Below, one piece after another: positions 1 to 24,514 of a DNA stretch of 47,234 nucleotides. The DNA comes from an uncultured delta proteobacterium. Lineage in GTDB: Bacteria; Desulfobacterota; Syntrophobacteria; Syntrophobacterales; Syntrophobacteraceae. Under the pieces are notes generated by a model. It did not search any database, was not told the origin of the DNA, and saw nothing but the letters and a program-made list of their open reading frames with translations. Location of the stretch: contig CAWEHK010000012.1 in assembly GCA_963808625.1 (NCBI GenBank), positions 1 through 47,234 of the forward strand. Direction: 5' to 3'. A program made the position numbers and the translations under genes. Positions within the stretch are counted from its first letter, which is position 1. Each line of letters begins with the position of its first letter.

Positions 1-1478
<1,478 letters not shown>

Positions 1479-1590: not shown

Positions 1591-1630
1591 GGGGTTTTTT
1601 TCTCGCCGACCCCCAGGTGACAAGAGCGGC

Positions 1631-1658: not shown

Positions 1659-1666
1659 CAACTAAT

Positions 1667-2593: not shown

Positions 2594-2811
2594 TGCTACT
2601 CCTCTAATTGGTTCATAAGATACCGTGTCCTTCAAAGAAGGCTTGCCCAAAACGGTCTGCATGTCAAAATCTCAGTTCACAGCTCCACCAAAATGATCTA
2701 AACTGACACTTTTGGTCATTAACGGTGAGCCCCTTGCCCCGACCATTCTTTAGGGGTTAAATGTTAACCTCCTTGCTTAAAGATAAGGCCCCTTGAAAGG
2801 CAGAGAAAGAG

Positions 2812-4176: not shown

Positions 4177-4198
4177 CAATAAGGAAACAAGGTATATC

Positions 4199-5049: not shown

Positions 5050-5119
5050 TGGACGATGAAGGGACCATCAAGCGGCAACACAGCCGCACCGCATCACCCG
5101 AAACCGGGGAGGGCAGAAC

Positions 5120-5503
5120 ATGTTTGACATTGGTTTTGACGAATTTCTCCTGATTTTGGTTGTAGCCCTCTTCGTCTATGGGCCAAACAAGCTTCCCGAC
5201 CTGGCCAAGGCCCTGGGGCGAGGTTATGCCGAATTTCGAAGAGCCACCAATGAACTCAAGCAAACCTTCGACCAAGACGAAACGGTCCGTGAAATCAAGC
5301 AGGAATTCCATAAAGCTCAAAACGAAGTTCTCTATGGCAAGCGTCTATTGGAGCCGGATGCAGCCAAAACCACACTAACCGCAATGATCAATGGGGTTGT
5401 TGAGTCGCCTGATGCCGCCTCTGATAAGAACGACACCGGGAAAAAACAAGGAGAACCTGCCGCCGCGACTACGGGAACCACCGATGACGCGAAGTTGTAC
5501 TGA
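5120..5503 (+). CDS. tatB: Twin-arginine translocase TatA/TatB family subunit
   Basis: [42 protein letters not shown]; directly upstream of tatC. Confidence 0.85.
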
Positions 5504-5544
5504 TCTTTCCCGACACCAGAGCAGATCCCTCAAGAGACCGGACC

Positions 5545-6321: not shown

Positions 6322-6348
6322 TCGATTCAGGAGAGGAACAATAACTGC

Positions 6349-7009
6349 ATGGAGAAGGTGCTGCTGGTAGTAGCTACGAGAAATCGCGGAAAATCAAAAG
6401 AAATCCGTGAATTCCTTCGGGATTTTCCGGTGGAAATAAAGGACCTGAACGATTTTGGGCCGATCCCGGAAGCAACCGAGGACGGGGAGACCTTTGAGGA
6501 GAATGCCTACAAAAAGGCAAGCTTTACCGCTAAAGTGCTCGGCTTTCCTGCCCTGGCCGATGACTCGGGTCTCGAGGTGGAAGCGCTGGGAGGTCAGCCG
6601 GGAGTCCACTCGGCCCGCTATGCGGGCCCGAAGGCCAGTGATGAAGAGAATAATGCCAAGCTGCTGGCAGCGCTCTCGGGAATCACCCATCGCAAAGCGC
6701 GATTCTGCTGCGTGCTGTCCCTGGCGGTTCCTTCCGGGCCGGCGCTCACCTATGAGGCCGCCTGCGAGGGACTGATTGTGGACACGCCCCGGGGTCACAA
6801 GGGTTTCGGCTACGATCCGCTCTTTTACTACCCTCCGCTGGGCAAAACCTTCGGGGAAATGGACGCTCGAGGAGAAGTCCCAGGTGAGCCATCGCGGTAG
6901 GGCGCTTATGCAATTGAAGGGCGAGTTCGAAAAGGTCCTTCAGTGGTTAAATCGAAGACTTGAAGAAGAGCGAATCCTGCGCGGCGCCCACGACATCTGC
7001 CGCCGATGA
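6349..7009 (+). CDS. rdgB: XTP/dITP diphosphatase (Ham1/RdgB); frameshift near 6865
   Basis: ATRNRGK..E, TFEENA..KA, LADDSGLEV, PGVHSARYA, GFGYDP; EEKSQVSHRGRA continues in the next frame. Confidence 0.93.
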
Positions 7010-7062
7010 AGCTGATCGGTTGTTTCCATTTATACCGGTCAGGGATGAAGTATTTCTTTCTT

Positions 7063-7144
7063 CACCGCGGAGAACGCAGAGTACGCAGAGGGATTTTCTC
7101 TGGAATATTTTGGTTTCTCTGCGATCTCAGCGTGCTCTGCGGTT
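7063..7144. repeat. Palindromic ccgcagag/ctctgcg-type interspersed repeat
   Basis: accgcggagaacgcagagtacgcagag ... ctctgcgatctcagcgtgctctgcggt; related copy at 23313-23375. Confidence 0.7.
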
Positions 7145-7225
7145 ATAGGAGCATCATCCGCACGGATAGGAACGGGGGGCGGGTTTTCCAACCCGCCATC
7201 GAAACGAGTTGCCGCTTGAGAAGCG

Positions 7226-7651
7226 TCACCTCCGCGTATAGAACTTCTTCCACGGTTGTCGTTCGTTTTCCCTGCCATCGGCAATGGCCAGGCGCAGGAC
7301 CTCAATCGCCTGCTCGGCACAATGATTCTCCTCGGGAGGCAGAGTTTCGAGATAGCCGATGATGTCCTCCGGAGAGAGCGCCAAGCCTTCCTGCAGTGTC
7401 TTTCCCCGAACGAGATGGACCGCAGCATTGGCGCAGACGACGGCGAAAAGACACCCATCGGTCTCAAACGCCGCCGACTCAATCCGTCCGTTGCGAACGA
7501 CCAGGAAGATCTCTATTGTATCCCCGCACTCTCGGGACGTCTTTGCATAGCCATCGGGATTTCTCAAGACTCCCCGCGTATCGGTCCGCAACGCCATTTC
7601 AAGAAAAGGTAGCGACTGATTCTGCCAAAAATCGATAGCAGCCTGGTCCAT
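7226..7651 (-). CDS. NifU/IscU N-terminal domain Fe-S scaffold protein
   Basis: ECGDTIEIFL, FETDGC...VCA, LPPEENHCA: three conserved Cys of NifU_N. Confidence 0.88.
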   Translation of the reverse strand: MDQAAIDFWQNQSLPFLEMALRTDTRGVLRNPDGYAKTSRECGDTIEIFLVVRNGRIESAAFETDGCLFAVVCANAAVHLVRGKTLQEGLALSPEDIIGYLETLPPEENHCAEQAIEVLRLAIADGRENERQPWKKFYTRR

Positions 7652-7798
7652 TAAGTTCGCCTCGCCAAACCCGCATGCATTTCAGGTAAAAATCCCGTCC
7701 TGAGTGCACCCCAGGAACATGCTCTTTCTCAAAGCCCCATGTTAACCGAATCGGCCCCGGCTTTCAAACCCCTCAGCAACCCTCAGCGAATTTGGGTC

Positions 7799-8482
7799 TC
7801 AGGGGTTACATATCCCACAAGGCTTGTACCCCGCCCTTATTGCTTGCTCCCTGCCTTTGAAGACAGCAATGCAGCTGGTGCAGTCAAACTCCTCGCAATT
7901 CGATGAGTGAAATACGTGCCGTACGATATCACCCTGGTAGATGGGTATCAAAGCCCCCTTGCTATGCCGGAATTCCCAGGGAGGGATCGGATCGGGCATC
8001 GACCAGAGGCCGAACCTCTGCCGTTTGGCTCGCTTTTCCAGCTCCTTCCATTCCTTGCATCCCGGTGTCGTGCAGGATTGGTTGGATACCCAGGCAAGGC
8101 CCGCCCTGATGAGTTCTTCATTCAGGCACTTGCCGCTCTCGGTATAGACGAGAGCCAAAGTCCGCCCAAATTGATCCTTGGTCTTCCCTTTGCGATCGAT
8201 GACGACGGGTTCGACTTCGACCGTTTTCCGAAGCGCACGCTGGGAAGTGAAGTCTTTCGCCATCTGGCCAAAAGGCTGGCGCACCCCGGGACAATCGATG
8301 CCGTAGAGGCTAACCCTCTCTCCTTTGCCCTCATGGGAGACGGTGAGGTAGCTGCCGTCGGTGACACCGGTGACCTTACCTTCCCAGGCGTCAGAGGATG
8401 CCGCTGAGGAGACAATAAAGAGGGATAAAACAAAGCAGAAAATGTTTGTCTGTCCCGTGCGATATTTGGCCGTGCTCATCAC
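7799..8482 (-). CDS. Secreted thermonuclease (SNase)-fold protein with C-terminal Ada-type Zn-binding domain; active site degenerate
   Basis: Signal peptide; LYGIDCP..QPFG, DQFGRTLA, LNEELIRAGLAW, GLWSMPDPIPPWEFR; C-terminal FHSSNC...AIRAGYKPCGICNP. Confidence 0.85.
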   Translation of the reverse strand: MMSTAKYRTGQTNIFCFVLSLFIVSSAASSDAWEGKVTGVTDGSYLTVSHEGKGERVSLYGIDCPGVRQPFGQMAKDFTSQRALRKTVEVEPVVIDRKGKTKDQFGRTLALVYTESGKCLNEELIRAGLAWVSNQSCTTPGCKEWKELEKRAKRQRFGLWSMPDPIPPWEFRHSKGALIPIYQGDIVRHVFHSSNCEEFDCTSCIAVFKGREQAIRAGYKPCGICNP

Positions 8483-8560
8483 TTAAAAACTTCCCTCATA
8501 TTATGGAAAAAGTGACGTCATTCCGTTTTGCGTCAAACCTCTCTTGACCAAGTCAACCAA

Positions 8561-8800
8561 TCAAACCTTCAACATCCAATGTCTTTTCCACATCACCCAC
8601 ACTGCCAGGAACACAAAGAGGGTGACGCTCACGGCAAAGATCAGGGAACCAAGTTCCTTGTCGGCCACCGGTGCATGGATGGTGTCGTAGATGGACCTTT
8701 TGAGGGTGGTCCTCCTGCCATCGGCCCGCGTCACCTCAAGCACTCGCATTGTCTTGGAGAGTAACTCTGAGAACACGTAAGCGGCAATAGCATTCATCCC
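8561..8800 (-). pseudogene. C-terminal fragment of a heparan-alpha-glucosaminide N-acetyltransferase-like membrane acyltransferase
   Basis: FGMNAIAAYVFSELL...GSLIFAV...MWKRHWMLKV is the typical C-terminus of this family; no N-terminal part fits before the tRNA. Confidence 0.6.
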
Positions 8801-8908
8801 GAAAAGGACTGAATCGTCTGGCTGGTAGGATCTCTTGTTTTGACTCGCCTCGTCTTGTTTGATCGCTCAACCACAATCAAGGCACGGCTGCATCAACTTT
8901 GTTCTTAC

Positions 8909-8984
8909 TGGTGGGCGAGAGAGGATTCGAACCTCCGACTTCCACCGTGTGAGGATGGCACTCTCACCGCTGAGTTACTCGCCC
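8909..8984 (-). tRNA. tRNA-Val (anticodon CAC)
   Basis: Reverse complement GGGCGAGTAACTCAGCGGTGAGAGTGCCATCCT-CAC-ACGGTGGAAGTCGGAGGTTCGAATCCTCTCTCGCCCACCA; acceptor stem, GGTTCGAA T-loop, encoded CCA. Confidence 0.96.
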
Positions 8985-8998
8985 ACGGACTGCCGGAA

Positions 8999-9027
8999 CT
9001 TATATCGCAAAAGCAGGACCGGTGCAA
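8999..9027 (-). promoter_or_regulatory. sigma70 promoter of tRNA-Val (TTGCAC-17 bp-TATAAG)
   Basis: Plus strand cttata (8999-9004) and gtgcaa (9022-9027), 14 nt upstream of the tRNA. Confidence 0.6.
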
Positions 9028-9326
9028 CAGAAAAGCATTAACAATTTCAACAGGGGGTAGAATTCAAGGGATTTCTTTATCCCGGCGTATTGTATTTTTG
9101 TTCGCGGTAAGCTATCGAACCGTGAGAAGGAATAGTTTTGCAGGAGATTTGGGCTTGTGCGGGCCAGTGGCGCTGCCGATGGGCCCCACGGCGATGACGA
9201 TCAGGGAGTTCCTCCTGGTATTCCTGGGAGAGGTTCGCGTGTCGATCATTGCCGCGCAGTACAGTATGTTGCTCGATCATTGTCGATGGTTCGCATCGGC
9301 TTATAATCGGTCTCACCATTTGCAGT

Positions 9327-10253
9327 ATGCAGTCAATGTTTTCAGACAAAATTGAAGCGGCTCAACGACCCGGCATCCTTACCAGCCCGGCTCTTCGCGG
9401 GATCCTGTGGATGGTGCTTGCACAGGTGCTCTTTTCCGCCATGGGAGTGTTCACGCGACTCGGGGCGCAAAACGTGCCGTGGCAGGAGGCGGCGCTTTCG
9501 CGGTTCGGTGTGGGGGCACTGGTCGCATACCTGATGGCGAGGACGCGCCGCACCAGCCTCGGCATCACGAACAAGAAGCTCATGTGGATTCGCAGCATCA
9601 CGGGGACGCTTTCGGCGCTTTGCGTCTTTTATGTATGGGCATCGCCCGAAATCCCGCTCGGCGACGCCGTGACGCTCACTTCGGTCGGACCGGTGTTCGT
9701 GGTCCTGCTGTCCTGGCCGCTTCTGAAAGAGCGCGTCGGAAGGCTCGTCTGGGGCGCGGTACCCATTGCGTTCAGCGGGATCGTGCTGGTTGTGAAACCA
9801 TCGTTTCACGTGGCAATCTCTTTTGCCGTGATCGCGGTCGTCGGTTCTTTCTTCTATTCCCTGGCGATGATCTCGCTGCGCCAGATCGGCCCGAGCGAGT
9901 CAGGTGAGGCCGTCGTTCTCTATTTCTCGCTTTTCGGAACGCTCGTGATGCTCTGCATTACGCTTCCCGTATGGGAAACCCCTGATCCGGTTACGGGGCT
10001 CTTCCTCGTGCTCACAGGATTGTCCGGAGGGTTTGCGCAGGTCGCCATGACGCGCGCCTACTCGCTCGACCGCGCCGCGCGGATCTCCGCCTTGAACTAC
10101 CTCGGAATCATCTTCACAAACCTCTTCGCCATCCCCGTATTCGGCAACCTCCCGAGCTTCTGGCAAATCGTCGGGTCGGGGCTCGTCATCCTCTCGGGAA
10201 TCTTCATCACGCTCAGCGCGCAACAGGAAAAGGTCCCGCTGGAGATGGCATGA
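9327..10253 (+). CDS. DMT/EamA family transporter
   Basis: About 10 hydrophobic segments in two repeats; LSWPLLKERV, GIVLVVKP, AQVAMTRAY; start uncertain (9327 or 9336). Confidence 0.9.
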   Translation: MQSMFSDKIEAAQRPGILTSPALRGILWMVLAQVLFSAMGVFTRLGAQNVPWQEAALSRFGVGALVAYLMARTRRTSLGITNKKLMWIRSITGTLSALCVFYVWASPEIPLGDAVTLTSVGPVFVVLLSWPLLKERVGRLVWGAVPIAFSGIVLVVKPSFHVAISFAVIAVVGSFFYSLAMISLRQIGPSESGEAVVLYFSLFGTLVMLCITLPVWETPDPVTGLFLVLTGLSGGFAQVAMTRAYSLDRAARISALNYLGIIFTNLFAIPVFGNLPSFWQIVGSGLVILSGIFITLSAQQEKVPLEMA

Positions 10254-10286
10254 AAGGGGTCAGGAAAATCATCGAACGCCGAAGTT

Positions 10287-12585
10287 TCAAGCGGTAGGCC
10301 CTTTTTCCCGCGGTCCGTTTATCCGCCATCGGCTCTGTTTCTGCTCATCCTTATCCCGGTAAGACAGGCCGTATTGATAGTAATAGTAGTCGTAATAGTA
10401 ATAGCCGTCCCTGCCTGACGTCCATCTTGTTCAATACCACCCCGAGGATTTTGGCATTCAGATCGCCGAGCAGTTTGACCGCCCGCTGGGCGAAGTTCCG
10501 CTTGGTATCTCCGGCCTTAACCACAAGCAGCGTCCCATCGACGAAGGAGGTAAGCACGGCCGCATCGGTTGCGGCCCAAAGCGGAGGAGAATCGAGGATG
10601 ATGCGTCGGTAATCCTGGCGCAAGGATTCCAGAAGGGCATGCATGCGTTTTGATCCCAGCAAATCCGCAGGATTTGGAGGCGATCGGCCCGCTGGTGATG
10701 ACATCCAGGTTAGCCTGGGTTGTTTTCTGAACGTACAGCTTGTGGGTCCACTCTCGTGCCTGCCAGCAAATTCGACAACCCCGGGTCGCGATCCAGGCTG
10801 AATGCTTTGTGCAACACGGGTCTCCGCAGATCGCAATCCACCAGCAGCACGCGGCTTCCCGCCTGGGCCATGACGATGGCGAGATTGGCGGCGGTGAGCG
10901 ATTTGCCCTCACTCTTTCCCGGGCTGGTGACGAGCAGCAGTTGCGGCTGAACGTCGGCAGACGAAAGGAGAAGGTTGGTGCGGAGGGCCCGGTAGGCTTC
11001 GGCGCCCGATGATTTTGTTTCGGCAAGCGCAATCAAAGGCCGGAATCGGCCTGCGCGGATTTGCCGTCGAGTGCAAGATTAGGTACCGCCCCGAGAAACG
11101 TCAGCTCGAGATGCTGTTCGATCTGCTCCGGTTTGGTAAAGGTGTTGTCAAGGTGCTCCAGCAAAAATGCCGTGCCCAGTCCCAGGGCAAGGGCCAGCAT
11201 CAAGCCTTTCATCATCTGCCTCTGCACGTCGGGGCTGCTCGGCGCCCCCGGGACTTCAGCCCGCTCGAGAATCGACGCACTCGGACTCCTGCTCAGCTCT
11301 TCCGTGAGCGAGGTTTCCTTCAGCCGGTTGAGCACCAGATCATAGACCTTCTCATTGCTTTCCACTTCCCGCTTCAGGGCAAAATAACTGACCGTGCGCT
11401 TTTTCAGGTCTTCAATTTCGTTCTGAAGGTCATTTCTGGCTTTCGTGATCGATTTTTCCTGGAGCTTGGCGGTGTCATACTGGACCTCCAGGGCGTTGAC
11501 GATCTTCTGGATTTCCTGACCTTTAGCGGACCGGATGTTCTGGAGCTGCCGCTCAATGGAGGAAATTTTCGGGTGATTGCTGCCATAGGTGGCGGAAAGT
11601 TTGATCGTTTCCTGTTGCAGCTGGATCTCCTGGGTGCGCAGTTCGGCGAGGACCTTGTTGGTAAGCGCTTCGGGAATGGTGTCAAGAGGTTTGGAGAAGC
11701 GGCGAGCTTCAGCGTCTGCTGATATTTGATTTCGAGCATTCCCGCGTTTTCACTGGCCGCCCTGGCTTTCTCCTCCAGAAGCTTCAGTTCCTCCTCGAGC
11801 TTGGTGCCGCGCTTTTCGTCGAGACTCAGGATCCCATAGGTATTCATGAAGTCGTACAATTCGATCCGCGAACGATCAAGGCCCGCCTGTTCCGACTTGA
11901 GGTGATTCTGCAGCCAGGTGATCCCCTGCTGGGTGCTTTCCAGACGGCGGGCCAAACGGTCCTGGATAAAGACCTCGGCCGTGGTGTTGGCGATGAGGGC
12001 CGCTTCGCGCGGGTCAGCACAAGTGCAGACAATCAGAAGGATGTCGGTGTCCTTGATGCCCTTAACGCTTAGCCTGGCGCTAACTTGAGCCGCGCTGTAC
12101 AGGGGGCGGTGCGCAGCAAGACCCTTCTCGGAAGCCTCCGCAGCTGACTTTGCCGGGGCTGGTGGGGAGGGGGAGGAGTGCTTCTGGAAGAAGGAAGATA
12201 TGGTGCGGAGACCGGAAAGCAGTATGTGGAAAGGTTCGCCTTGATAGGGATCAACTGTGCCGCTTTCACGGGCACCGGCTGGGTCCGGCTGGTTGAGTTC
12301 GTTGGCGACTTTCCGGAGGAATTCCTTGGACTGCAGGATTTGCCGATGGGTTTCGGTGGAGGCGCCGTAATCCGAGTAGGATGGGTAGACAAACTGGCCG
12401 CCAAGGGGCTGCATCGGCTGCTCAATCAATACCTTGGCACTGGCGGTGAAAAGGGGGGTCTCGGCGGCGAGCCTGATGAAGCCTGAGACAACGACGATGA
12501 GGGCGACACAAAAGACGATCCAGCGCCGCTTCCAAACGATCAGGACATAGCCCCTGATATCGGATGGCAGTTTGTTTTCCAACAT
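10287..12585 (-). CDS. wzc: Wzc/GumC-type polysaccharide co-polymerase with BY tyrosine kinase domain (several apparent frameshifts)
   Basis: Joined frames: N-terminal TM (WKRRWIV), coiled coils, GSNHP-like motif, second TM, AEAYRALRTNL, Walker A SPGKSEGKS, VLLVDCDLRRP, IILDSPP, GVVLN, then the Tyr cluster DGYYYYDYYYYQYG with stop at 10287. Confidence 0.88.
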
Positions 12586-13177
12586 TGGTCTCAAGTCCTC
12601 AAATGGAAGTGGGGCCGCCAGCCTGAACCATGGCGTCAAGGGTGTTCGTTTTTTGGTAACGGTCAAGCACAAAAATGACCGGGCTTTTTCATTTCACCCC
12701 TTAATCATAAAACGATGAGCCAAAGAAATGCAAGTAATGTGCTGATCCCTCACCTGTTCATCGGCACCATCCTTCACCGCGACGGAGGGAGCCAAGGCAA
12801 CTGTCAGAAGCGGTTCGTAGGAACGCTTCTCCCACCAGGGCTATTTTTCATTGACTCGATTAAGCAATATGTTCAAATTGACACTGTTTCTGGGCTTGAT
12901 CTGGGCACGCTGAGTCAGGCAGTAGTAAGACCCGCCTCTCACCGGTAAGAAACGATTATCCGCTCCGGTGAACGAACAAACACTTTCACACCTTATCCAT
13001 ACCCGTTAAGGAACGAAACTTGCATTTTCAATTTGCCGGATGCCCGCCAGTGGCACGCTGGCATGACGACAGGGTGCCTGCAGCCTCACCCCTTTCTGGT
13101 GCCTGGCCGTCATATCCGCAGGCTTTTGCCGGCAATCCGGGACCCGAAACAAATGCAGGATTTCACCCGTAAAGGGT

Positions 13178-16100
13178 ATGAAACTGTTCAAGGAGAGCAT
13201 CATGCGTATCGGCGAACATCTTTTTCGTTTTCGGTTTCCAGGCCGTTGTCACCTGCTGTTCTGGGGCTTGGTGCTGGCACTGGCGGGGATTGCGGGATTT
13301 CCCGGCTTGGCGTATGCGACGCCAGGTTTTGGATCGGTGTCCAGCACCGCAAGCGGCAATACAAATGTAACCAGTCTCACCATCTCTGTCCCTTCGGGGA
13401 CCGCCGCGAACGACCTGCTCCTTGCAACCATTTCCACCGACGGCGACGTTACCTTTAACACTCCCACGGGGTGGACGCTCCTGAACCAGGGCCCGTCGCC
13501 GGGAAATGATTCCACCCTTGCGGTCTTTTACAGGATCGCCGGCGGATCGGAACCCACAACCTATACATTCACCTGGAGCGGCAATCAACAGGCTGCCGGC
13601 GCCATCCTCCGTTACACCGGGGTGGACTCGATCACCCCCATCAACACCTTCGCCACTGCCACGGGCACCAGTGCCAGTCCTACCGCGCCGAGTGTGACGA
13701 CCACCGTGGCCGATACGATGGTCGTTCGGATCTTCGGGGCTGACTTTAGCGGAACCATATCACCCCCGCCTGGCAACACCTTACGCGTCGGTCTCTCAAG
13801 CAGCACCGGCAATGGCGCCACCAGTCTGGGCGCGGCTGACTTGACGCAGGCGGCGGCCGGCGCCACCGGTACTGCGGCGTTTACCTACGTGAATGAACAA
13901 TGGCGCAGCATGACTGTCGCCCTGGCCCCCAGCAAGTTCCCGGGCTGTGCCGATCTCAATAACAGTACTCCGGGCACTAACCTGAGCGGGGTGGTCAATA
14001 CTTATTATCCCGGCACCACCGGGACCGTCAGCATCGGGGCCACCTCCATCCCGGTTGGAACCTCACGAGGCGCCGGTACGCCAATTGCATCGGGCGACCT
14101 CCTGTTGGTTATGCAGATGCAGTATGCAGACATCAATTCCACGAACACCGCCAATTACGGCGCTGGTACGGGCACGGCGAGCGGGGCCACCAGTTACGCC
14201 ACCGCAGGCTACTACGAGTATGTGGTTGCGACCGGAGCCGTAAGCGGCGGGGCTGTGCCCATTGCCGGCGAGGGGCCCGGCAGCGGTTTGTTGAACACCT
14301 ACGTCCAGGCTGCGTACTCGACCCAGGGACAGCGCACCTACCAGGTGGTCAGGGTGCCCCAGTACCAAACGGCCACCGTCACCGGCACGATCACGGCCGC
14401 CCCGTGGAACGGCAGCTCCGGAGGGATCGTGGCCATCGAGGTGGTCGGGCAGTTGACCTTTTCCGGCGGGGGGATCAATGTCGACGGCCAGGGTTTCCGG
14501 GGCGGCGGCGGACAGCAGCTCCAAGGCCAGAGCGGAGCCGGTCTTCTCAATACCGATTACCGTACCCTGGCGACTTATGCCGCCAACGGCAACAAGGGCG
14601 AGGGCGTGGCCGGTTCGTCCAGGTATATGTACGACGGCACCTCGACCCTCGTGAATACGGGCGTAGAAGGCTACCCCAACGGCAGCCGGGCCCGCGGCGC
14701 TCCGGGTAACGCCGGCGGCGGCGGCACGGATGGCGATCCCGCAACCGCTTCCCCCAATGGAAACGATCAGAACTCAGGCGGCGGCGGCGGCGGCAACGGC
14801 GGCGCAGGGGGACGGGGCGGCAACAGCTGGTCTTCAAACCTGGCTGTCGGCGGTTATGGCGGCGCCGTCTTCCCCTATTCCACCAGCCGTTTGGCTATGG
14901 GAGGCGGGGGCGGCTCCGGCAGCCGCAACAACTCGACGGGCGTTCAGTCCAGTGGCGGCTTGGGCGGCGGCATTATCATGGTCCGCGCCGACAGCATTAC
15001 GGGAACCGCCACCCTCAGCGCCAACGGCGGCTGGCCGGCCTCTGACAACTACACCCCGGCCAACGACGGGGCCGGGGGCGGCGGAGCGGGCGGCAGCGTA
15101 CTGGTGTTTGCCCGAACCGGGGTCCTCACCAGCCTCACCATAAGCACCAACGGAGGCAACGGCGCCAATTCCTGGCCCAATCAACCTCCCAACGGTACTC
15201 CAGGAGAACGGCACGGCCCCGGCGGCGGGGGCGGCGGGGGGGTGATCTATCTTTCCAGTGCTGCCGGCGCCACCAGTGTTACCGGTGGCGCCAATGGTAC
15301 GACCACCACCGCGGCGGATGCTTATGGAGCCGCTTCGGGCACTAACGGCGCCGTGGTTGCCACGCTGACCGCCGGGAACATTCCGGGAACGGCTTCGGAT
15401 GCTGTTTGCGCCGCCACGCTTGCCGGTGATCAGGGAGTTCCGCGCGGAAGAGGACGGCGGTCAGGTGGTACTGGCGTGGCGCACCGGGTTCGAGATCGGC
15501 ACCGTGGGCTTCCATGTGGAGCGCCGTGACCCGGTGACCGGGACCTTACGAGCGGATCAATCACCGGCTGCTTCCTGCTCTGCTCGGGGCCCCGCAGGGA
15601 GGCGTCTACCGGTTTGCGGACGGGAACGCCCTGCCGGGTGAGGTCTATACCTACCGTCTGGTGGAGCTGGAGGCCTGGGGCGGCAATCGGTTCCACGGGC
15701 CATACACGGTTGTTGCCGATGCAGCCGCCACGGAGAAAGCGGACATCTCGGCCCCGGCCCGCACCGAAGCGATAACCGGTTCCGGACATGATGATCCGGC
15801 CTCCGGTTACCGGGCGATCCCCAACCCCTTGCGGCCGAAAATTCAGGCCGGCCGGCGCGGCACCGGCCCGGCCGCTTTCCCAACCGCCGATCGTAAAGAC
15901 GAGTCGACTGCGCAAAGCCTCCCGAAAACCTCCTTCTCTGCCGCGTCGCCCGGCAGCGCCCAGGTCAAGGTCCGCGAGGACGGACTGGTGTTCGTCTCCG
16001 CCGCCGATCTCGCCGTGGCGATGGGCACGAGCGAGAGCGAGACGCGCCAGCGGCTCAAGCAGGGTCTATTGAAGACCATGCAGGGAGGGCGGGACGTGGC

Positions 16101-17962
16101 CTGGCTGGGAGCGAGCGACAGCAGCGGACTCTTTTTCTACGGGCAACATCTCGACAGTCTCTACACCCGCGACAACGTCTACCGGTTCAACTCCGGCGTG
16201 GGAAAGAAGATGGGGGTGATCTCGGGCAAGCCGACCGGTTCCGTGGCCGCGGGCGTGTTCACCGACACGATGGTCTTCGAGGAAGACATCCTCGCGGCGA
16301 CCCTTGCGGCCACCGACCCGGAGTCGGACTACTGGTTCTGGGAGGGCTTCATCGGCGGCGATCCCGATTACGGCAGGAAATCGTTCACCCTGAACCTGCC
16401 CGACGCGGTGGCGGGAACCAGCCTGACGGTGCGTCTCAACGGGGTCTCCTCGGGCGCCCATCCGGTGGAGGTGCGGTGGAATGGACAACCGCTCGGCAGC
16501 AGCACCTGGAGCGGTCTTGGTAATCAGCAACTGGTGTTTTCTCTCGGGGGTGCCGCCATGCTGAGCGGAGCCAACACGGTGGAGCTGACAGCCCTGGGCG
16601 ATGCCGAGAACCTGTTCTTCCTCGACAGCTTCGAGGTGACCTACGACCGGCTCGCACGAGCCGTGGGGGATCAACTTAAATTGACGACGGCCCCGAGCGG
16701 CGCCGTGGCCGTGGAAGGATTCGAGCGCTCCGACATCATTGTGCTCAACATCACCGATCCGCGACTGCCCGTCTCCGTTACCGGACTGCGGCTCGATGCC
16801 GGACGGGTCGGGCTACCGGGTCAGCTTTCTCGGCCAGGCGAGCCATCGGTATTTTCTGACCACCCCCGCGGCGGCGACCGTGTTGCGGCCTTACCCGGTG
16901 CTCGCGGGCAAACTCGCGGTAAAAGACAGGGTGGCTTACGTCATCATCACCTGCGACCAGCTTGCGGAGGGGGCGCAGGCGCTTGCCGAGCTTCGCCGGC
17001 GGCGCGGGCTGAACGCTCGGGTGGTGACGCTGGAGGCGATTTACAATGAATTCAGTCAGGGCATTGCCGACCCCCGTGCGATCCGTGACTTCCTGCAGTA
17101 CGCCAGGGGCAAATGGGGAAGCCGGTATGCCGTCCTGGTGGGTTCGGGCACATACGACTATCGCGATTTGGAGGGTCAGGGAGACAACCTGGTACCCACC
17201 TTGATGACGGCCACGCCTTACGGGCTGTATGCCTGTGACGGGTGTTTCGCAGATTTCCTCGGCAATGGCATGCCGCAACTGGCGGTGAGCCGTATCCCTG
17301 CGGGCAACGCCGCTCAGCTCCAGGCCTACGTGAACAAGCTCGCCTCTTATGAGGAGCTTCAGGCATCCGACCGGACCCGAGAAGTTTTGATGTTGGCCGA
17401 TGCGCGCGACCCCCTGGCGGGCGATTTCCCGAAAGACAGTGACGGCGTCGCCTCGCTGGTGCCGCCGGATGTCTCGATTAAGAAGATTTATCTCAGCACA
17501 ACCGACCCTGACCCCGCCCGGCAGTTGACCATTGAAACCATGAACGCCGGCCTGTTCTGGGTCAATTACATCGGCCACGGGGGCATGGACCGGCTGGCCG
17601 ATGCCGGACTGCTGGCCTCGGGCGATGAGGCCGTGCTCAACAATACGAACCTCCTTCCGGTATTGTCGGCCATAACTTGCGCCGTCAACCGCTTTGAGAT
17701 TCCGGGGATGCGGTCCCTTGGGGAAGAACTGGTGCTTGACACCGACGGTGGAGCCATCGCCGTTTGGGCCCCGACCGGACTCTCAATCAATACTTTTGCA
17801 GTTCAAATCAACAAGTCGCTGTTCAACGAAGTGTTTGAGAAGCGGCGGCAGCTTCTTGGCGACGCCGTAAGGCAGGCTTTGGCGGCGAACAGCAAAATCC
17901 CGCCTTTTATGTTGCGCATCTACAACCTTCTCGGTGATGGGGCGCTCCTCCTGAGCGAATGA
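13178..17962 (+). CDS. Large secreted multidomain protein (~1,590 aa): beta-rich N-domain, Gly-rich region, Ig/FN3-like domain, C-terminal gingipain-type C25 cysteine peptidase; frameshifts near 15425, 15545 and 16800
   Basis: Signal peptide ending GLAYA; ORFs 13178-15529, 15399-15641, 15661-17049 and 16739-17962 join into coherent domains; C25 motifs YVIIT, IYNEFSQG, YAVLVGSGTYDY, NYIGHG (His), AITCAVNRF (Cys), YNLLGD. Confidence 0.85.
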
Positions 17963-17968
17963 AAGGAT

Positions 17969-18154
17969 ATGGGCAGAGTGGGATTAGTCGGGCCGCCAGT
18001 GCACGATCAGAAACCATCAATACCAAAGAAGCGCTATGAGAAGCCGAGGATTCTCGCCCGTGAACCTTTGGAAGCGGTGGCCGCAGTTTGCAAACCGGTG
18101 CCTCCGGCAAAAACCAACCGCGTGACCTGTCGCCAGGGACCGAACCGGTCATGA
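17969..18154 (+). CDS. Putative RiPP precursor peptide (61 aa; KKRYEKPRI leader, two Cys, C-terminal Ser)
   Basis: Starts 6 nt after the C25 stop with an aagga RBS; stop overlaps next ATG (ATGA at 18151-18154); YxxPxI RRE-binding motif; PqqD and rSAM genes downstream. Confidence 0.75.
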   Translation: MGRVGLVGPPVHDQKPSIPKKRYEKPRILAREPLEAVAAVCKPVPPAKTNRVTCRQGPNRS

Positions 18155-18663
18155 TCTCCAATGAAAACCCATATTGCTCAACCCAAAATGGTCTCGCCTG
18201 CCGTGATGATCGGTCCGGTGGTGGACCTGATTGGAGAAGGAGCCGCCGGGTCATGGTTCAGGGCTTGGCCGCTATTTCCCTCAAGGATGATCTGCACTTC
18301 CGGGTTACGGGTTCATGCATGGGCTCGGTGCTGGTTGACGGCGGCTCTGTGAAGCTGGCTTCGAGGTCGCGCTATTGGCCCGGGGATGTAGTCGTGGCAT
18401 GGTGGCCGGAAGATGGCTTTCGCCTCCACCGAGTCATCGGGGGATATCGCCGGAATGGCGCCTGGAGACTATTGACCCAGGCGGATGCCGCCGACATGCC
18501 GGATTGTGCCCTGCCAAGAGCTCACGTGGTGGGAAGGGTGGTCGGGGGTGATTGCGATCACGCCATCGCTCGCGTTCCCGTTCGACATCGCCTGTGGGCA
18601 CTGGGGCGCTTCGCAACATTTATCATGTCAACCTTGGTGAGCAAATCACATGGCCTTTGGTGA
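18151..18663 (+). CDS. S24/S26-fold (signal peptidase-like) protein, Cys at the nucleophile position
   Basis: FRVTGSCMGSVL..G, YWPGDVVV, LHRVIG, LLTQAD, VVGRV match the S26 box pattern; start uncertain (18151 or 18253). Confidence 0.72.
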   Translation: MISNENPYCSTQNGLACRDDRSGGGPDWRRSRRVMVQGLAAISLKDDLHFRVTGSCMGSVLVDGGSVKLASRSRYWPGDVVVAWWPEDGFRLHRVIGGYRRNGAWRLLTQADAADMPDCALPRAHVVGRVVGGDCDHAIARVPVRHRLWALGRFATFIMSTLVSKSHGLW

Positions 18664-19582
18664 ATACTTCATGACGAGACCGCCGAGCGAGGTTGAATCC
18701 GCATTAGCCCCGTGGGGAGGGAACCGGGTCGTCCTTGAGATGATCGGCGGCCCCTATGCGTTTTCCGGTCTTTCCGTTCAGCAAAGCCGGTGGATTCGTG
18801 AGCACCTGGAGACACTCTGCAACAACTCCACGGCTTGCACTCCCGCCAGCGAGACAGAAGTCTGCCGTGCTTCCGAAGACCTCTTCAAACCCATTGATGT
18901 GCGAGGCTGGGAATACACGTATGAGCGCGACTACCAATTGGATCATGTGAGCCTGGCAGGGCTTTGTTTTTTCGGTCGGGTCACTCTTCGATCCCCCTGC
19001 TGCGGGCGCTTATGGACCAGTGCGACGTCCCCTGAGAACTTCGAAGGAGTGTTCGAGAACTTCTTGCGCGTTCTGGTCACCTACAGGATCGCCGCAAGGG
19101 GAGGCATACTCCTGCACAGTGCGGCGATTGCGAAGGGGGGGCGTGCGATCCTCCTTGCGGGAAACTCGGGAGCAGGCAAATCAACCGCGTCAAAGCTCGC
19201 TTTGGATGCGGGATGGGAAGTGCTTTCCGATGACCTGAATGCACTGATGCCGGAAGGCGCCGCGTGGACGGTCGAGAAAGTACCCTTTGCCGGCGATTTG
19301 GGTTCAACCACAACGGACGCCCGCTCCTATCCCCTTGACGGTGTGTTTTGGCTGGAAAAGGCCGACAGGCATGGCCTTGTTGAAACATCAAAAGCCCTCC
19401 TTCTGGCGCATCTCCTCAGCTGCGCACCACTGCTCAACGAAGACCCCTTCCGGGTCGATCAGGCGTTGGCGACTCTGAACGCCCTGGTGCTGGCCCTTGG
19501 TCGAGGCACTTTGCGGTTCGCCCGGGATGAGGGATTCCTCGGACTGCTTATGCCAAACGCGGACAGACCCCATGGAAACTGA
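18650..19582 (+). CDS. HPr kinase-related P-loop protein (RiPP-cluster type)
   Basis: ENFLRVL, LLHSAAI, Walker A GNSGAGKST, VLSDDL, VPFAG. Confidence 0.82.
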   Translation: MAFGEYFMTRPPSEVESALAPWGGNRVVLEMIGGPYAFSGLSVQQSRWIREHLETLCNNSTACTPASETEVCRASEDLFKPIDVRGWEYTYERDYQLDHVSLAGLCFFGRVTLRSPCCGRLWTSATSPENFEGVFENFLRVLVTYRIAARGGILLHSAAIAKGGRAILLAGNSGAGKSTASKLALDAGWEVLSDDLNALMPEGAAWTVEKVPFAGDLGSTTTDARSYPLDGVFWLEKADRHGLVETSKALLLAHLLSCAPLLNEDPFRVDQALATLNALVLALGRGTLRFARDEGFLGLLMPNADRPHGN

Positions 19583-19874
19583 GTTCTCCCGGTTTCGCTT
19601 AAAACGAGATGTCCTCTACCGCCGAGTCTGGGACGAAGGCGTGGTGCTCCTCAAGTCTTTGGGTGAGGTGCTCGTGCTCAATGATGTCGGCACCCGCATC
19701 GTCGAGCTATGCGAAACGGGAATCTCAGCGCGCGATCTCGTGACCCGGCTCGTGCAGGAATTTGACGTTGAGCCGGAGCGCCTGGAAGCAGACCTTCGGG
19801 ACTTCATCCAGGACTTGAAGGATGCCGGTGTCCTTGAACCTCTTGATGCCCTCGAGCCGGAGCCGCCGACGTGA
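19572..19874 (+). CDS. PqqD-family RiPP recognition element (RRE)
   Basis: YRRVWDEGVVL...VLNDVGTRIVEL...LVQEFDVEPERLEADLRDFIQDLKDAGVL; 100 aa. Confidence 0.92.
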   Translation: METEFSRFRLKRDVLYRRVWDEGVVLLKSLGEVLVLNDVGTRIVELCETGISARDLVTRLVQEFDVEPERLEADLRDFIQDLKDAGVLEPLDALEPEPPT

Positions 19875-20899
19875 CATACAGCGACCTGCTGACCAGGATG
19901 CTTAATGAGAACTTCTTGTTCTCGGCACTGTTTGAGCTTACCTACCGCTGCAATCTTAATTGTTACCTTTGCTACAATGATCGTAAGCGAACCGGCATGC
20001 CTCTATCGCTTGAAGAATATGTGACGATCTTCCACGATCTGAGGGACCTGGGAACCTTCGAGCTCACCTTCAGTGGTGGCGAGCCATTGCTGTATCCTGG
20101 TTTCTTTGAGTTAGGAAGGGTGGCCCGACAGCTCGGGTTCGCACTGCGCGTAAAAACCAACGGTATCGCTTTAGAGGAGGCGGTGGCCGCGAGACTCCTG
20201 AACGAAGTGGATCCTTTCATCGTTGAGATCAGCCTGCATGGGGCGCGCGCCGCGACATACGAGCGGCAGACGAGGGTATCGGGAAGCTTCGGGAGGTTGA
20301 TGGCTAATCTTCAAAGCCTCCGCAAGCTGGGGGTGCGGGTTCAACTCAACGCCCCTTTGACGGCCTGGAACGAAGCTGAATTGGAGGCGATGATCGATCT
20401 CGCGGAAGCTCTGGGCATGGGAATACAGATCGACCCCAACCTCACCCCGCGTGATGACGGAAGCCTGGAACCCTTGTGCCTTTCCCCATCCCCTCAGGCA
20501 AGCGAGAGCTTGCTCAGGATTTACCGGGAAGCCGTAGAGGTCGCACCGTCACACATGGACCAGGATGCGTCCGGGGTACCGGGACCGGTGCTTTTCACCC
20601 CAGCCAGGCGCAAGTTCTGCGGGGCCGGGTCTTTGGGGGTGGCCGTCGATCCCTGGGGCAACGTTTATCCCTGCGTGCAATGGCGGACGCCGGCAGGGAA
20701 CCTCCACGAAGACTCCATCACCAGCATCTGGAGCGGCTCACCGGTATTGCAGGGCGTTCGCGAGACCCTGGCAAACATTATGGTTAAGAGGCAAGCCCAG
20801 GATGCCGGCTCTTTGGCTACAGCGTTCTGTCCGGGGCTGACACCCCAATTGGAGAGCCGACCGCTGCCGCTGGCAAGTGGTAATAGAGCTTTTGTATGA
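19871..20899 (+). CDS. Radical SAM enzyme with reduced SPASM/Twitch domain
   Basis: ELTYRCNLNCYLCY (CxxxCxxC), FSGGEPL, KTNG, EISLHG; auxiliary CGAG-x-G-x4-C and FCPG; GTGA overlap with the RRE gene. Confidence 0.93.
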   Translation: MTYSDLLTRMLNENFLFSALFELTYRCNLNCYLCYNDRKRTGMPLSLEEYVTIFHDLRDLGTFELTFSGGEPLLYPGFFELGRVARQLGFALRVKTNGIALEEAVAARLLNEVDPFIVEISLHGARAATYERQTRVSGSFGRLMANLQSLRKLGVRVQLNAPLTAWNEAELEAMIDLAEALGMGIQIDPNLTPRDDGSLEPLCLSPSPQASESLLRIYREAVEVAPSHMDQDASGVPGPVLFTPARRKFCGAGSLGVAVDPWGNVYPCVQWRTPAGNLHEDSITSIWSGSPVLQGVRETLANIMVKRQAQDAGSLATAFCPGLTPQLESRPLPLASGNRAFV

Positions 20900-21052
20900 A
20901 ATCCCCCCGCCATTTGTTAAAGGGGAGCGAAGAAGATTTCACGATTCGTTGTGCCCCACGGGTCATGGCGGGGGCATTAGCCAAATGTGAATCAGTCAGA
21001 ACACCATTGACGTCAAATATGCACCCTTGATTTGTGATGTATCCATTATCGG

Positions 21053-21976
21053 TTAATCTTTAAGGATATCCTGAGCGCCCGGGCCTTCTGCAACGCAAAC
21101 GCAGTTTCTTCCCTCGCGCTTGGCCATGTACAGAGCCTCATCCGCCCGTGCGATAAGGGCATTCAGAGGTTCTTCGTAGTCCTGGCAAAAAGAAGCTGCA
21201 CCGAAGCTGGCGGTGAACCGGATGCACTGAGACGGATCAGCGGTGGGGACCCTGAGGTCTTCCACATTCCTGCGCATGCGTTCGGCAACCAAAGCAACGT
21301 CTGAATAATCAAGTCCAGGCAAGCATACTGCAAATTCCTCCCCGCCGTATCTGCCTGCGAAGTCATCTTGTCTCAGTAGTGCGGATAGTTGTTCGGCGAA
21401 TTGCTGAAGCACGAGGTCACCCATCTGATGTCCATACCGGTCGTTAACGTCCTTAAAATGATCGAGGTCGGCAAGCACGAAAGAAAGCGGCCTGCACTCC
21501 CGAACCGCCCGTTCCACTTCGACCTGCAACTTCTCCAAAAAGGCCCGCCGATTCAAAACACCGGTCAAGGAATCCGTGTCTGCGAGCTGGAGAATCCGTC
21601 GTTCAAGGCTAATGATCCGTTCTCCAATCTTAATGCGGATCCTCAGTTCTTCATGGTCAAAAGGTTTGATCAGATAATCATCAGCCCCCGCTTCCAAACC
21701 CTTGATGAGGTCCTCTTTTCTTCCTTTGGACGTGAGAAGGATAAGATAGGTATAGCCTCGTCTTTCACTTTCGCGAATTCGCTTACATAGTTCCAGCCCA
21801 TCCATATGCGGCATCATCCAATCAGAGATGACCAGATTGGGCGCCTCAGGACCCTTAAGAAGTTCCCAGGCTTCCCTGCCATCAGAGGCAGCGACAACTT
21901 CGTAGTTCCACTTGCGCAGGCTGACTTCCAGTAGCCGCCTCGATATGGGTTCGTCTTCAACAATCAGAATCTTCAC
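21053..21976 (-). CDS. Response-regulator diguanylate cyclase (REC-GGDEF)
   Basis: KILIVEDE, ISDWMMP, ADDYLIKPF; TDSLTG, DLDHFK.VND.YGH, RQDD I-site then RYGGEEF. GTG start at 21976. Confidence 0.93.
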   Translation of the reverse strand: MKILIVEDEPISRRLLEVSLRKWNYEVVAASDGREAWELLKGPEAPNLVISDWMMPHMDGLELCKRIRESERRGYTYLILLTSKGRKEDLIKGLEAGADDYLIKPFDHEELRIRIKIGERIISLERRILQLADTDSLTGVLNRRAFLEKLQVEVERAVRECRPLSFVLADLDHFKDVNDRYGHQMGDLVLQQFAEQLSALLRQDDFAGRYGGEEFAVCLPGLDYSDVALVAERMRRNVEDLRVPTADPSQCIRFTASFGAASFCQDYEEPLNALIARADEALYMAKREGRNCVCVAEGPGAQDILKD

Positions 21977-23432: not shown

Positions 23433-24405
23433 TTACGGCAAGAAACAGGCTTGCCGGGATATCGGTGTCCCGGAATGTTGTTCCAGTTCCGCCAGAGCAT
23501 TGCAGATGGCTTCCTTCATGGAAAGGAGCCGGATGGGCACGAGCTCCAATATCCGGTTATCTCTACAGATCACCTCATTCTTCAGCCCCTCGACCAAAGG
23601 CATGACAATTCCCGCAGGAACCGGGGTTACCAGATTGATCCAGTAGGAGGAAAGCACCGGGCTAAGAAAGGGCACGGCAATCATCAACCGTCGTAAACCG
23701 CGCATCTCAGCATAAATGCGCATCAATTCCCGGTAGGTGATGATGTCGGGTCCTCCGATATCGAGCGTCAGCCCGGCGGTGGCGGGCTGGGAGATGCACC
23801 CCATGAGGTAGGCGATCACATTTTCGACCGCGATGGGCTGACAGCGGGTATCGATCCACTTTGGACAAATCATCACCGGGAGACGTTCGGCAAGGTGGCG
23901 CAGCATCTCGAAAGGCGCGCCCCCAGCCCCGATGATATTTGCGGCCCTGAGGACCGTCGTTTTCACCCGCCCCGACTGGAGGATTTGCCCCACCCTCTGC
24001 CGGCTTACGAGATGCGCAGAGAGGTTATCAGCCATTTCTCCAAGCCCGCCCAGATAGATGATGCGCTCTAACCCCGACTGCGTCGGCCGCCTTCACAAAG
24101 TTTTCGGCGGCCTGAAGGTCACGGTCGATGTAGGTTTTGTACTGGAAAATACTGCGGCCCCCCATGGAGTGCACGAGGTAATATGCGACCTCCATGCCCG
24201 CCATGGCTCGCTCAAGACCTTCCCGATCAAGCAGGTCCCCCTGCACGACTTCAACTCCGGGGCGGTCGGCCAAAGCTTTCGGGAATCGATCTCGCGAGCG
24301 GGCAAGGCACCGTGTCGGGACACCCTCCTGGCTCAAGGCACGCAGCAGTCGCCCGCCCACAAACCCCGTTGCCCCGGTCAGAAATACCTGCGGTTTCATT
24401 CCCAT
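23433..24405 (-). CDS. NAD(P)H-binding atypical SDR/NmrA (YbjT-like) protein; frameshift near 24065
   Basis: VFLTGATGFVG, VAYYLVHSM, IIYLGGLG, LSAHLVSR, LRAANIIGAG, PKWIDTRCQPIA. Confidence 0.88.
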
Positions 24406-24465
24406 GGTTCTACGTCCTCTCACATCCGGTTCCGGATTATGGACACCTTCAAAAGAAGGTCCACG

Positions 24466-24514
24466 AAGGCACACGAAGACTTCTTAAGGCACACGAAGAT
24501 TTCTTAAGACACAC
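24466..24514. repeat. 20-bp tandem repeat (~2.5 copies, aaggcacacgaagaYttctt)
   Basis: Read directly; contains the cacgaa core also seen at 34727-34762 and 39551-39627. Confidence 0.7.

Follow-up and report, generated by a model that had tools for sequence, protein, structure and literature searches.

What would a bacterium make with an operon that sets the gene for a giant peptidase of family C25 beside a very short reading frame and beside enzymes of the kind that modify ribosomally made peptides? The question is raised by a 47,234-nucleotide stretch of DNA from an uncultured delta proteobacterium of the Syntrophobacteraceae (contig CAWEHK010000012.1; the whole stretch is called the window below), on the plus strand of which six co-oriented reading units occupy positions 13178-20899, five of them intact and the first broken across frames. 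They encode a C25 peptidase, a 61-residue peptide, a homologue of signal peptidases, an HprK-like kinase, a stand-alone protein of PqqD type and a radical S-adenosylmethionine (SAM) enzyme. Our answer, to which we give a probability of roughly 0.7 and which draws on sequence and on analogy with known systems, is that the operon would mature the small product, a candidate RiPP (a peptide made on ribosomes and modified after its translation), into a cross-linked and phosphorylated compound that is tied to the C25 protease. A preliminary description of this DNA had proposed a RiPP-like cassette, and a RiPP recognition element (RRE), a radical SAM enzyme, a kinase and a peptidase are indeed found here around a conserved precursor with a YxxP leader.

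The evidence that the short frame is a genuine precursor lies in its conservation. A pattern based on the kinase alignment gave 155 matches in one-genome-per-species contigs, of which 137 encode a relative of the kinase, and the best 80 of these 137 loci were analysed. A pattern search located the peptide frame in 61 of the 80, besides the window. Since the pattern that picked the rows of the peptide alignment itself demanded Tyr/Trp-x-x-Pro, two Cys and a final Ser, the independent evidence for these residues is a second set, obtained by tblastn with the 61-residue frame and extended to the next stop; it comprises 52 loci, and Ser is the last residue in every one. An alignment of 57 peptides shows no variation at P26, E35, C41, C54 and the terminal Ser and almost none at Y23, I28, E32, A38 and K48, with the consensus [KR]xYExPRILxREPLEAVAAVCxPxPPAKxNxGxCPxGPISS, in which Arg and Lys residues are also conserved. 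The leader of the window's peptide contains Y23-x-x-P26-x-I28-L29, a YxxPxIL motif that is kept across phyla, and its predicted core, A39-S61, contains C41, K48, C54 and the C-terminal S61, while the region N-terminal of the consensus is variable and hydrophilic, with no signal-peptide-like stretch. The gene is single-copy in the window's own genome. By all three approaches (tblastn, pattern search and alignment) the short frame, first proposed as a precursor from the window alone, is real and strongly conserved.

The product of the next gene gave no Pfam or NCBIfam match. A profile of 50 of its homologues, when searched against solved structures, nevertheless retrieved human SEC11A (7p2p) first, with E = 3.9e-06, and human SEC11C at 1.3e-05, followed by bacterial SPase I and LexA; Foldseek with an AF2 model (predicted local distance difference test score, pLDDT, of 90) likewise placed 7p2q and 7p2p at the top, then lambda cI and LexA. 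The protein has the motif GSCMGS, with Cys replacing the catalytic Ser, the His of HRVIG and a T-x-A-D-x5-D box. In the alignment with SEC11A the family motif G-x-[C/S]-M-x-P falls on GSMEP, H-R on VHRV and T-x-[GA]-D-x5-D on TKGDNNAVDD, and the Cys stands at the position of the catalytic Ser, which is an Ala in entry 9rjb, as expected of an inactive Ser56 variant; Ser56, His96 and Asp116/Asp122 of SEC11A are given in the accessible part of a preprint on the structure of the signal peptidase complex (bioRxiv 10.1101/2020.11.11.378711). Among 61 kinase-adjacent homologues the nucleophile is Cys in 48, Ser in 11 and a gap in 2, and His, Thr and both Asp are kept in all 61. A search of 1.84 billion representatives returned 229 matches to the profile at E<=1e-30, and in the best 150 of them Cys occurs in 118, Ser in 24 and no motif in 8, with the His present in 143. 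The enzyme had been called an S26-fold peptidase, which is right and can be made more precise: it belongs to the endoplasmic reticulum (ER)/archaeal (SipW/Sec11, S26B) type with a Cys-His pair, and by analogy it is the predicted leader peptidase.

The three remaining genes were assigned as follows. Homologues of the kinase carry Pfam PF27840, named ScmC, in precomputed annotation, and its NCBIfam scores lie below cut-off for both ScmC (53.3 bits; cut-off 125) and HprK_rel_A (37.2; 200). An AF2 model (pLDDT 91) brought up PEPCK first in Foldseek and then the HPr kinase/phosphatase structures 1knx and 1ko7, at 3e-04, and the sequence has the Walker A motif GNSGAGKST followed by LSDDLNA, with G171, S173, G174, G176, K177, T179, S193, D194 and N197, which make up Walker A and S-D-D-x-N, invariant among homologues. 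As modelled, the kinase has the HprK/PEPCK P-loop fold. The PqqD-type protein matches Pfam PqqD at 1.7e-15, and its best NCBIfam models are PqqD chaperones of lasso peptides, all below cut-off. The last enzyme matches Pfam Radical_SAM at 6.2e-20 and, partially, SPASM at 1e-06, over profile positions 1-48 of 67; its best NCBIfam match is MftC TIGR03962, at 101.3 bits against a cut-off of 265, and PqqE matches as well. Its cluster motif CX3CX2C is formed by C27, C31 and C34, and across 61 homologues the only further conserved Cys are C250, C268 and C320 (60/61 each), the CX2CX5CX3C motif of the full seven-Cys SPASM set being not present in this comparison. Because only three C-terminal Cys are conserved, we read the auxiliary domain as shortened and twitch-like rather than as a full SPASM domain. 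The kinase, the stand-alone PqqD and the single radical SAM enzyme of the preliminary description were thus borne out, and its assignment of that enzyme to the SPASM type was not.

How far does such a gene set depart from what is known? Half of its logic has a precedent from 2026, the linear polyphosphorylated peptides (LPP) of Bacillota, encoded by lppA-K-B-S-D-N clusters (Popov et al., Nat Commun 2026, PMC13381572). According to the accessible parts of that paper, LppS is a SipW-like signal peptidase with the catalytic residues S29, H68 and D93, which cleaves after T-1 and does so only with the leader presented by the RRE LppB; LppK is an HprK-like kinase that adds several phosphates to Ser3 of the core, and the clusters also encode the nucleotidyltransferase LppN and the MsbA-like pump LppD. 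The precursor motif is YxxPxVLxHQxIxFET/xxS (the slash marks the cut), the clusters sit in capsular polysaccharide loci and LPP are called restricted to Bacillota, and the main text, as far as accessible, nowhere mentions radical SAM, C25, Acidobacteria or Proteobacteria (PMC13381572).

Judged by those parts, LPP are the closest known system, and the likeness rests on shared folds and motifs. In both systems the RRE stands alone and is accompanied by an HprK-like kinase and by a signal peptidase of archaeal/ER (SipW-like) type, the (here predicted) leader peptidase; the leaders of both can be written Y-x-x-P-x-[VI]-L-x-[HR]-[QE]-x-[IL] in one register, the residue at -1 being small; an uncharacterised nucleotidyltransferase occurs in some of the loci related to ours, and both tend to adjoin genes for envelope polysaccharides. 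The operon differs in adding a radical SAM enzyme (72 of the 80 loci) and a giant C25 peptidase, and the window has neither an MsbA-like exporter nor a PF14907-like nucleotidyltransferase match. The nucleophile is Cys in most members here and Ser29 in LppS, with His and Asp kept; core position +3 is an invariant Cys instead of the phosphorylated Ser3, and F-E-T corresponds to A-V-A. The core is short, strongly conserved and always Ser-ended, in contrast to the variable LPP cores, and the carriers are Gammaproteobacteria, Acidobacteriota, Myxococcota and Desulfobacterota, where that paper restricts LPP to Bacillota. The earlier view that the operon fits no characterised class therefore stands in so far as no NCBIfam system model reaches its cut-off, and falls in so far as LPP are closely related. 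Since LPP share the peptidase type, the RRE, the kinase and the YxxP leader, the operon is a variant of known RiPP logic and not without precedent; it is best filed as a leader-handling and kinase module of LPP/lasso type joined to a twitch-type radical SAM enzyme, a Cys-nucleophile peptidase and a C25 protease.

Phosphorylated lasso peptides (paeninodin, pseudomycoidin, the Bsf family) share with the operon a PqqD-type RRE that recognises leaders with a motif of YxxPxL type, an HprK-like kinase and a C-terminal Ser on the precursor, a residue beyond which the lasso precursors have little in common; in Acidobacterial relatives of the operon a PF14907 nucleotidyltransferase lies beside the cassette. 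In paeninodin-type clusters, the accessible texts state, the HprK-like kinase phosphorylates the precursor's C-terminal Ser on its side chain (PMC8498205, PMC6993621). The operon differs from them in its signal-peptidase homologue as predicted leader peptidase and in its radical SAM enzyme and Cys-containing core. Neither a macrolactam synthetase nor a B2 cysteine (transglutaminase-type) peptidase was found by Pfam and NCBIfam in the six products, nor were these families seen among those conserved neighbours whose representatives were Pfam-scanned; this agrees with the initial remark that a lasso cyclase is missing, as is, in the 47-kb window, any ATP-binding cassette (ABC) exporter, the only ABC transporter being Mla.

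Likeness to the remaining families is more distant. The SynChlorMet cassette also pairs a kinase of Pfam ScmC with a PqqD homologue and a radical SAM enzyme of the PqqE-like group, but ScmD (26.2; cut-off 100), ScmE (65.2; 400) and ScmF (81.7; 400) all score under cut-off, as ScmC does, and the operon has one radical SAM enzyme instead of two and adds the SipW-type peptidase, the C25 partner and a distinct precursor family. The same holds for HPr-rel-A, whose kinase A model falls short as given above and whose PqqD_rel_X model reaches 25.7 (35), and for GeoRSP (geo_PqqD 37, cut-off 100; GeoRSP_rSAM 71.2, cut-off 400); our literature search found no paper on any of these three cassettes. With sactipeptides, ranthipeptides and SkfB-type twitch enzymes the operon shares a radical SAM enzyme whose auxiliary Fe-S domain is C-terminal, as well as an RRE and invariant core Cys; it differs in having three conserved C-terminal Cys and no CX2CX5CX3C, in matches under all family cut-offs and in a kinase and a signal-peptidase-type leader peptidase that are foreign to those classes. 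The mycofactocin precursor ends in Val-Tyr and ours in Ser, and the MftC score stays far from its cut-off. Literature searches revealed no paper joining a C25/gingipain peptidase, or ScmC/HprK, with radical SAM, PqqD and RiPPs, and the accessible main text of two RRE-mining papers (PMC12710340, PMC7470986) names no kinase, C25, gingipain or signal peptidase.

Where would the leader be cut? We place the cut after A38 with fairly high confidence, by analogy, because the leader fits the LPP register: Y23 falls at -16, P26 at -13, I28 at -11, L29 at -10, R31/E32 at -8/-7, L34 at -5 and A38 at -1, which leaves a 23-residue core, A39-S61. The lasso spacing rule, with Tyr at -17, would shift the cut to between A39 and V40 and was set aside, the LPP register being preferred because the peptidase is of LPP type. 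Signal peptidases require a small residue at -1 and a small or aliphatic one at -3, and the predicted site, read from the sequence, obeys this rule. The -1 residue is Ala in 47 of 47 loci; the -3 residue is Ala in 37 of the 38 loci with a Cys-type peptidase and Val or Leu in 8 of the 9 with a Ser-type one. This hints that the nucleophile and the -3 residue co-vary, which, the loci being related and not independent, lends weak support to the cut site.

The second pillar of our reading is the link between the peptide and the C25 protease. The match to Pfam Peptidase_C25 (PF01364) on 16739-17962 (E=1.3e-73, 248.9 bits, cut-off 23) covers the C-terminal ~340 residues of a giant protein of gingipain/PorU type, with the domain at about 16937-17950, a hydrophobic, signal-like segment at the N-terminus and a Gly-rich N-terminal region. 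The catalytic His and Cys (G297-H298 and C332) are invariant in 43 aligned homologues, and those homologues of the protein that are complete span 1,250-2,700 aa and likewise start with a hydrophobic, signal-like segment. With the PorU model NF033707 the protein scores 205.2 bits, below the cut-off of 420, and it is thus not placed as an equivalog of this type IX secretion system sortase.

Immediately 3' of the C25 gene, and on its strand, comes the peptide gene; this is so in the window, in most of the 80 loci and in all seven peptide-positive genomes of a set of 61 around the Competibacter genome G061. Relative to the maturase genes, this pair is upstream in the window and in two other loci (L018, L022), downstream in two (L021, L024) and convergent in Acidobacteriota; in genomes G066 and G070 the pair and the kinase are on different contigs. 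Two loci (L057, at 40-8466, and L090) have two C25 genes with a separate peptide gene after each, and in three more (L059, L064, L038) C25 genes, peptide genes or both are duplicated. Duplication or relocation affects the pair as one unit, and because the pair splits from the kinase in G066 and G070 and duplicates together, the tightest genomic partner of the peptide is the protease and not the maturases. The connection to the C25 protein drawn in the preliminary description is therefore real at the genomic level, by adjacency, co-occurrence and paired duplication. In the 61 genomes the kinase occurs in 8 and the peptide in 7, all within those 8, the kinase of the peptide-negative eighth genome being on a 3.4-kb contig; all 8, and one genome more, have a strong C25 match (E<=1e-88). 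Three kinase-negative genomes have weaker C25 paralogues, and the kinase-positive G068 has one as its second copy. On contig C64 of G101 (11306-12427) there is a cassette-type C25 domain (E=3.7e-143) in a genome where neither kinase nor peptide was matched at the thresholds applied, which may reflect incompleteness or a free-standing protease. Prediction of a complex from alignments of the C25 domain and the peptide scored 0.00 in both runs, which were made without controls.

The gene set as a whole is conserved elsewhere, in the 80 loci and the 61 genomes alike, so that the non-conservation named at the outset as evidence against the cassette did not materialize. In the best 80 of the 137 loci the PqqD gene was found in 74, the peptidase in 61 and the C25 gene in 46, in addition to the counts for the radical SAM and peptide genes given above; in the 34 loci that extend 9 kb or more to either side, the radical SAM gene was found in 33, PqqD and the peptide in 32 each, the peptidase in 28 and C25 in 24, and the misses are concentrated in short contigs. 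Judging by record titles, the carriers are Competibacter and other Gammaproteobacteria, Chromatiaceae, Thermoanaerobaculia, Holophagae and other Acidobacteriota, as well as Myxococcota, Desulfobulbaceae and a Betaproteobacterium. PF14907 nucleotidyltransferase genes occur in 24 of the 80 related loci and Wzy_C-like genes in 32, neither of them in the window, so that the nucleotidyltransferase noted as missing is missing from the window and not from the family. In Thermoanaerobaculia and other Acidobacteriota, PF14907 and Wzy_C (O-antigen-ligase-like) genes lie directly upstream of the peptidase gene (L097, 6681-9170); in one Thermoanaerobaculia group the C25 gene is several kb away or outside the flank. 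A few kb from Thermoanaerobaculia/Acidobacteriota cassettes we also noted a second kinase-like gene plus a nucleotidyltransferase pair and a 492-aa DUF3344-like protein. Such neighbours suggest that the peptide is decorated further or that there is a connection with glycans of the envelope.

On this basis we propose the following mechanism. The first step would be binding of the PqqD protein to YxxPxIL in the leader, and homology with the LPP and lasso systems gives us high confidence in it. In the core, the two invariant Cys would be the points at which the radical SAM enzyme forms a cross-link, with the near-invariant Lys48 as another possible partner; we have moderate confidence that C41 and/or C54 take part, and a thioether is the most likely predicted product. 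The HprK-like kinase may phosphorylate the invariant C-terminal Ser, S61, which we likewise hold with moderate confidence and by analogy, because the only invariant Ser is C-terminal and this is the site used by paeninodin-type kinases. The SipW/Sec11-type peptidase, with Cys-His in place of Ser-His, would remove the leader after Ala38 to yield the 23-residue core. Since the peptide gene is genomically bound to the C25 gene, a pairing that is solid, the mature product would be expected to work with or on the secreted protease, as its substrate, ligand or inhibitor.

A more specific form of this mechanism, possible but in our estimate distinctly less probable, sees two modules: a C25 protease with its own small gene, and maturases that would turn the product of that gene into a cross-linked, C-terminally phosphorylated 23-mer, a dedicated ligand of the protease. 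The constrained Cys-x6-Lys-x5-Cys loop could then act on the protease as a substrate mimic, inhibiting or activating it, or could be a tag for the protease to transfer. There is a partial parallel in the staphopain-staphostatin pairs, in which a cysteine protease gene has its cognate small partner directly downstream; here, too, the small gene comes immediately after the protease gene, and both are passed on and duplicated together, but the small product here has a RiPP leader and its own four-enzyme maturation set.

Several observations speak against the maturation of a protease-tied peptide as we propose it. What kind of cross-link forms, which residue is phosphorylated and where the cut falls are inferences throughout. 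The LPP kinase targets Ser3 of the core, the position taken here by the invariant Cys41, which makes the kinase target uncertain, and the radical SAM enzyme is without the full SPASM Cys set, so that sactipeptide and ranthipeptide maturases are loose analogues only. The core genes have no conserved exporter alongside them, though the protease has an export signal, and a peptide modified in the cytoplasm would have to reach a protease exported by Sec. C25 was found within 10 kb in only 24 of the 34 full-flank loci, and 19 of the 80 loci are without a detectable peptide and 19 without the peptidase, many of them on short contigs. The 60 relatives of the window's genome yielded no orthologue of the kinase, the best match having 32% identity, and in this assembly the reading frame of the C25 gene is broken at three places.

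What else could the operon be doing? The strongest competitor, which we consider rather unlikely, is that the mature peptide is an independent secreted natural product, an antimicrobial or a signal, with the C25 protein merely its extracellular processing protease or a functionally unlinked neighbour. Most RiPPs do stand alone, 10 of the 34 full-flank loci showed no C25 within 10 kb, and gingipain-type enzymes cleave after Arg or Lys, both of which are conserved in the peptide. This alternative, however, does not account for the peptide gene staying with C25, and not with the maturases, on the split contigs of G066 and G070, or for the co-duplication of the pairs; moreover, no conserved exporter accompanies the core, and a dedicated leader peptidase is already present.

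An improbable alternative is decay of the locus in this organism, with a true pseudogene for C25 and an operon that has ceased to function. The C25 gene had originally been described as an intact frame, and it is not one: 13178-17962 is spread over four frames (frame 2 to ~15424, frame 0 to ~15545, frame 1 to ~16850 and frame 2 to 17962), with three +1 shifts at ~15420-15428, 15541-15551 and 16820-16893. Decay would also fit the failure to find the cassette in 60 relatives and a G+C content of 0.58-0.68 within the operon versus ~0.52-0.56 in the flanks (over 13001-21000), as for acquired DNA. On the other hand, the essential rpoB and rpoC genes of the same assembly (contig C22, 89339-97463) are each in five pieces and several frames, so that indel errors are general, and a 151-nt contig from another public sequencing run (X4), ~96% identical, is without one base exactly at 15428. 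For both reasons the breaks are most likely assembly errors, as judged from sequence. The comparison of runs (contigs of X1-X4) reached the first shift only, and no run had more than 0.12 of the sampled words. The closest C25 homologues are single-frame, at 1,574 aa (L021) and 1,570 aa (L024); the other five genes of the operon are intact, and the C25 catalytic residues are kept. The window's own genome has a second C25 peptidase gene (contig labelled C25, 96831-97873; L002-L004), which is unrelated to the cassette, with no kinase or peptide nearby, and which likewise runs over three frames, a point that can be counted towards decay. The many indel errors mean that frame-based readings of this genome need care.

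Less probable still is a cofactor-type pathway like those for PQQ and mycofactocin, in which the peptide would be a sacrificial scaffold and a small molecule would be released from its conserved C-terminal residues. It could draw on the MftC and PqqE matches of the radical SAM enzyme, its PqqD partner, the conserved C-terminus GPISS and the missing exporter; yet the enzyme scores far under the MftC cut-off, the entire 23-residue core is conserved, including the two Cys and the Lys, the leader peptidase, kinase and YxxP leader match LPP/lasso logic as far as those sources go, and no tailoring oxidoreductases are conserved in the neighbourhood. Least likely of all, and very much so, is that the radical SAM enzyme, kinase and peptidase mature the C25 protein itself, with the small frame as a helper or decoy, for in spite of the genome-level co-occurrence of C25 and cassette and of radical SAM enzymes that modify proteins, such as the anaerobic sulfatase maturases, the RRE-type motif sits in the small peptide and is conserved across phyla, no C25 showed up within 10 kb in the 10 full-flank loci counted above, and the counterpart peptidase and kinase of LPP act on a small precursor (PMC13381572, accessible parts).

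The layout of the operon (Table 1) is that of translationally coupled genes. The C25 stop at 17960-17962 is followed by the 6-nt gap AAGGAT and the peptide ATG, with a Shine-Dalgarno-like AAGGA 4 nt before it; an ATGA at 18151-18154 combines the peptide stop with the peptidase start, the peptidase and kinase genes overlap by 14 nt (18650-18663) and the kinase and PqqD genes by 11 nt (19572-19582, with the PqqD ATG at 19572), and PqqD and the radical SAM gene have a GTGA at 19871-19874 in common. On re-reading the coordinates, gene order, strand and all five junction spacings were exactly as first listed. The boundaries hold as well, because the flanking genes, a Wzz-like gene just upstream and a GGDEF response regulator gene downstream, are unrelated and on the opposite strand. 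A scan of 12600-21200 for promoters and terminators gave nothing above the shuffled expectation.

Table 1. Genes of the operon and other features placed in the window.
Feature	Position	Strand	Size and basis
C25 peptidase gene	13178..17962	+	~1,590 codons; Pfam PF01364 match
Precursor peptide frame	17969..18154	+	61 aa; tblastn, pattern search and alignment
ER/archaeal-type signal-peptidase homologue	18151..18663	+	170 aa; profile search, AF2 model, Foldseek
HprK/PEPCK-fold kinase (as modelled), Pfam ScmC (PF27840)	18650..19582	+	310 aa; family matches, AF2, Foldseek
Stand-alone PqqD-type RRE	19572..19874	+	100 aa; Pfam PqqD
Radical SAM enzyme (rSAM)	19871..20899	+	342 aa; Pfam Radical_SAM
Wzz-type chain-length determinant gene	11404-12672	-	just upstream of the operon
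16S rRNA gene, cut by the window start	1-1478	-	
tRNA-Val (CAC)	8909-8984	-	

The raised G+C content of the operon, together with the failure to find the cassette in the 60 relatives, suggests horizontal acquisition, and the patchy distribution is as expected of a cassette acquired by transfer. An exopolysaccharide-locus setting, as for the LPP clusters, was considered and rejected: only the Wzz-like gene adjoins, and the rest of the 47 kb is housekeeping. Elsewhere in the window there are further signs of the indel errors of the assembly: a cytochrome c assembly gene at 4630-5049 matches profile positions 89-212 only, and an NAD-binding (NmrA-like) gene at 23433-24474 is seemingly cut into frames of 148 and 200 aa.

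Taken together, and if confirmed, these findings would mean that the RiPP logic of LPP, with its SipW-type peptidase, reaches several Gram-negative phyla and is joined there to radical SAM chemistry; they would also provide a natural Cys-His form of the signal-peptidase fold, the Ser and Cys types of which seem to co-vary with the -3 residue of the predicted cut site. The family is large, with 137 loci in species genomes and 229 cluster representatives of the peptidase (E<=1e-30), and its carriers include abundant uncultured groups such as Competibacter and Thermoanaerobaculia, so that a defined product would annotate many genomes. The modified peptide and the giant C25 protease would constitute a heritable pair, which hints at the regulation, inhibition or tagging of a surface protease, a function rare among RiPPs. 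Should the two-module reading prove true, this would be a RiPP made for one protein partner and not a free antibiotic.

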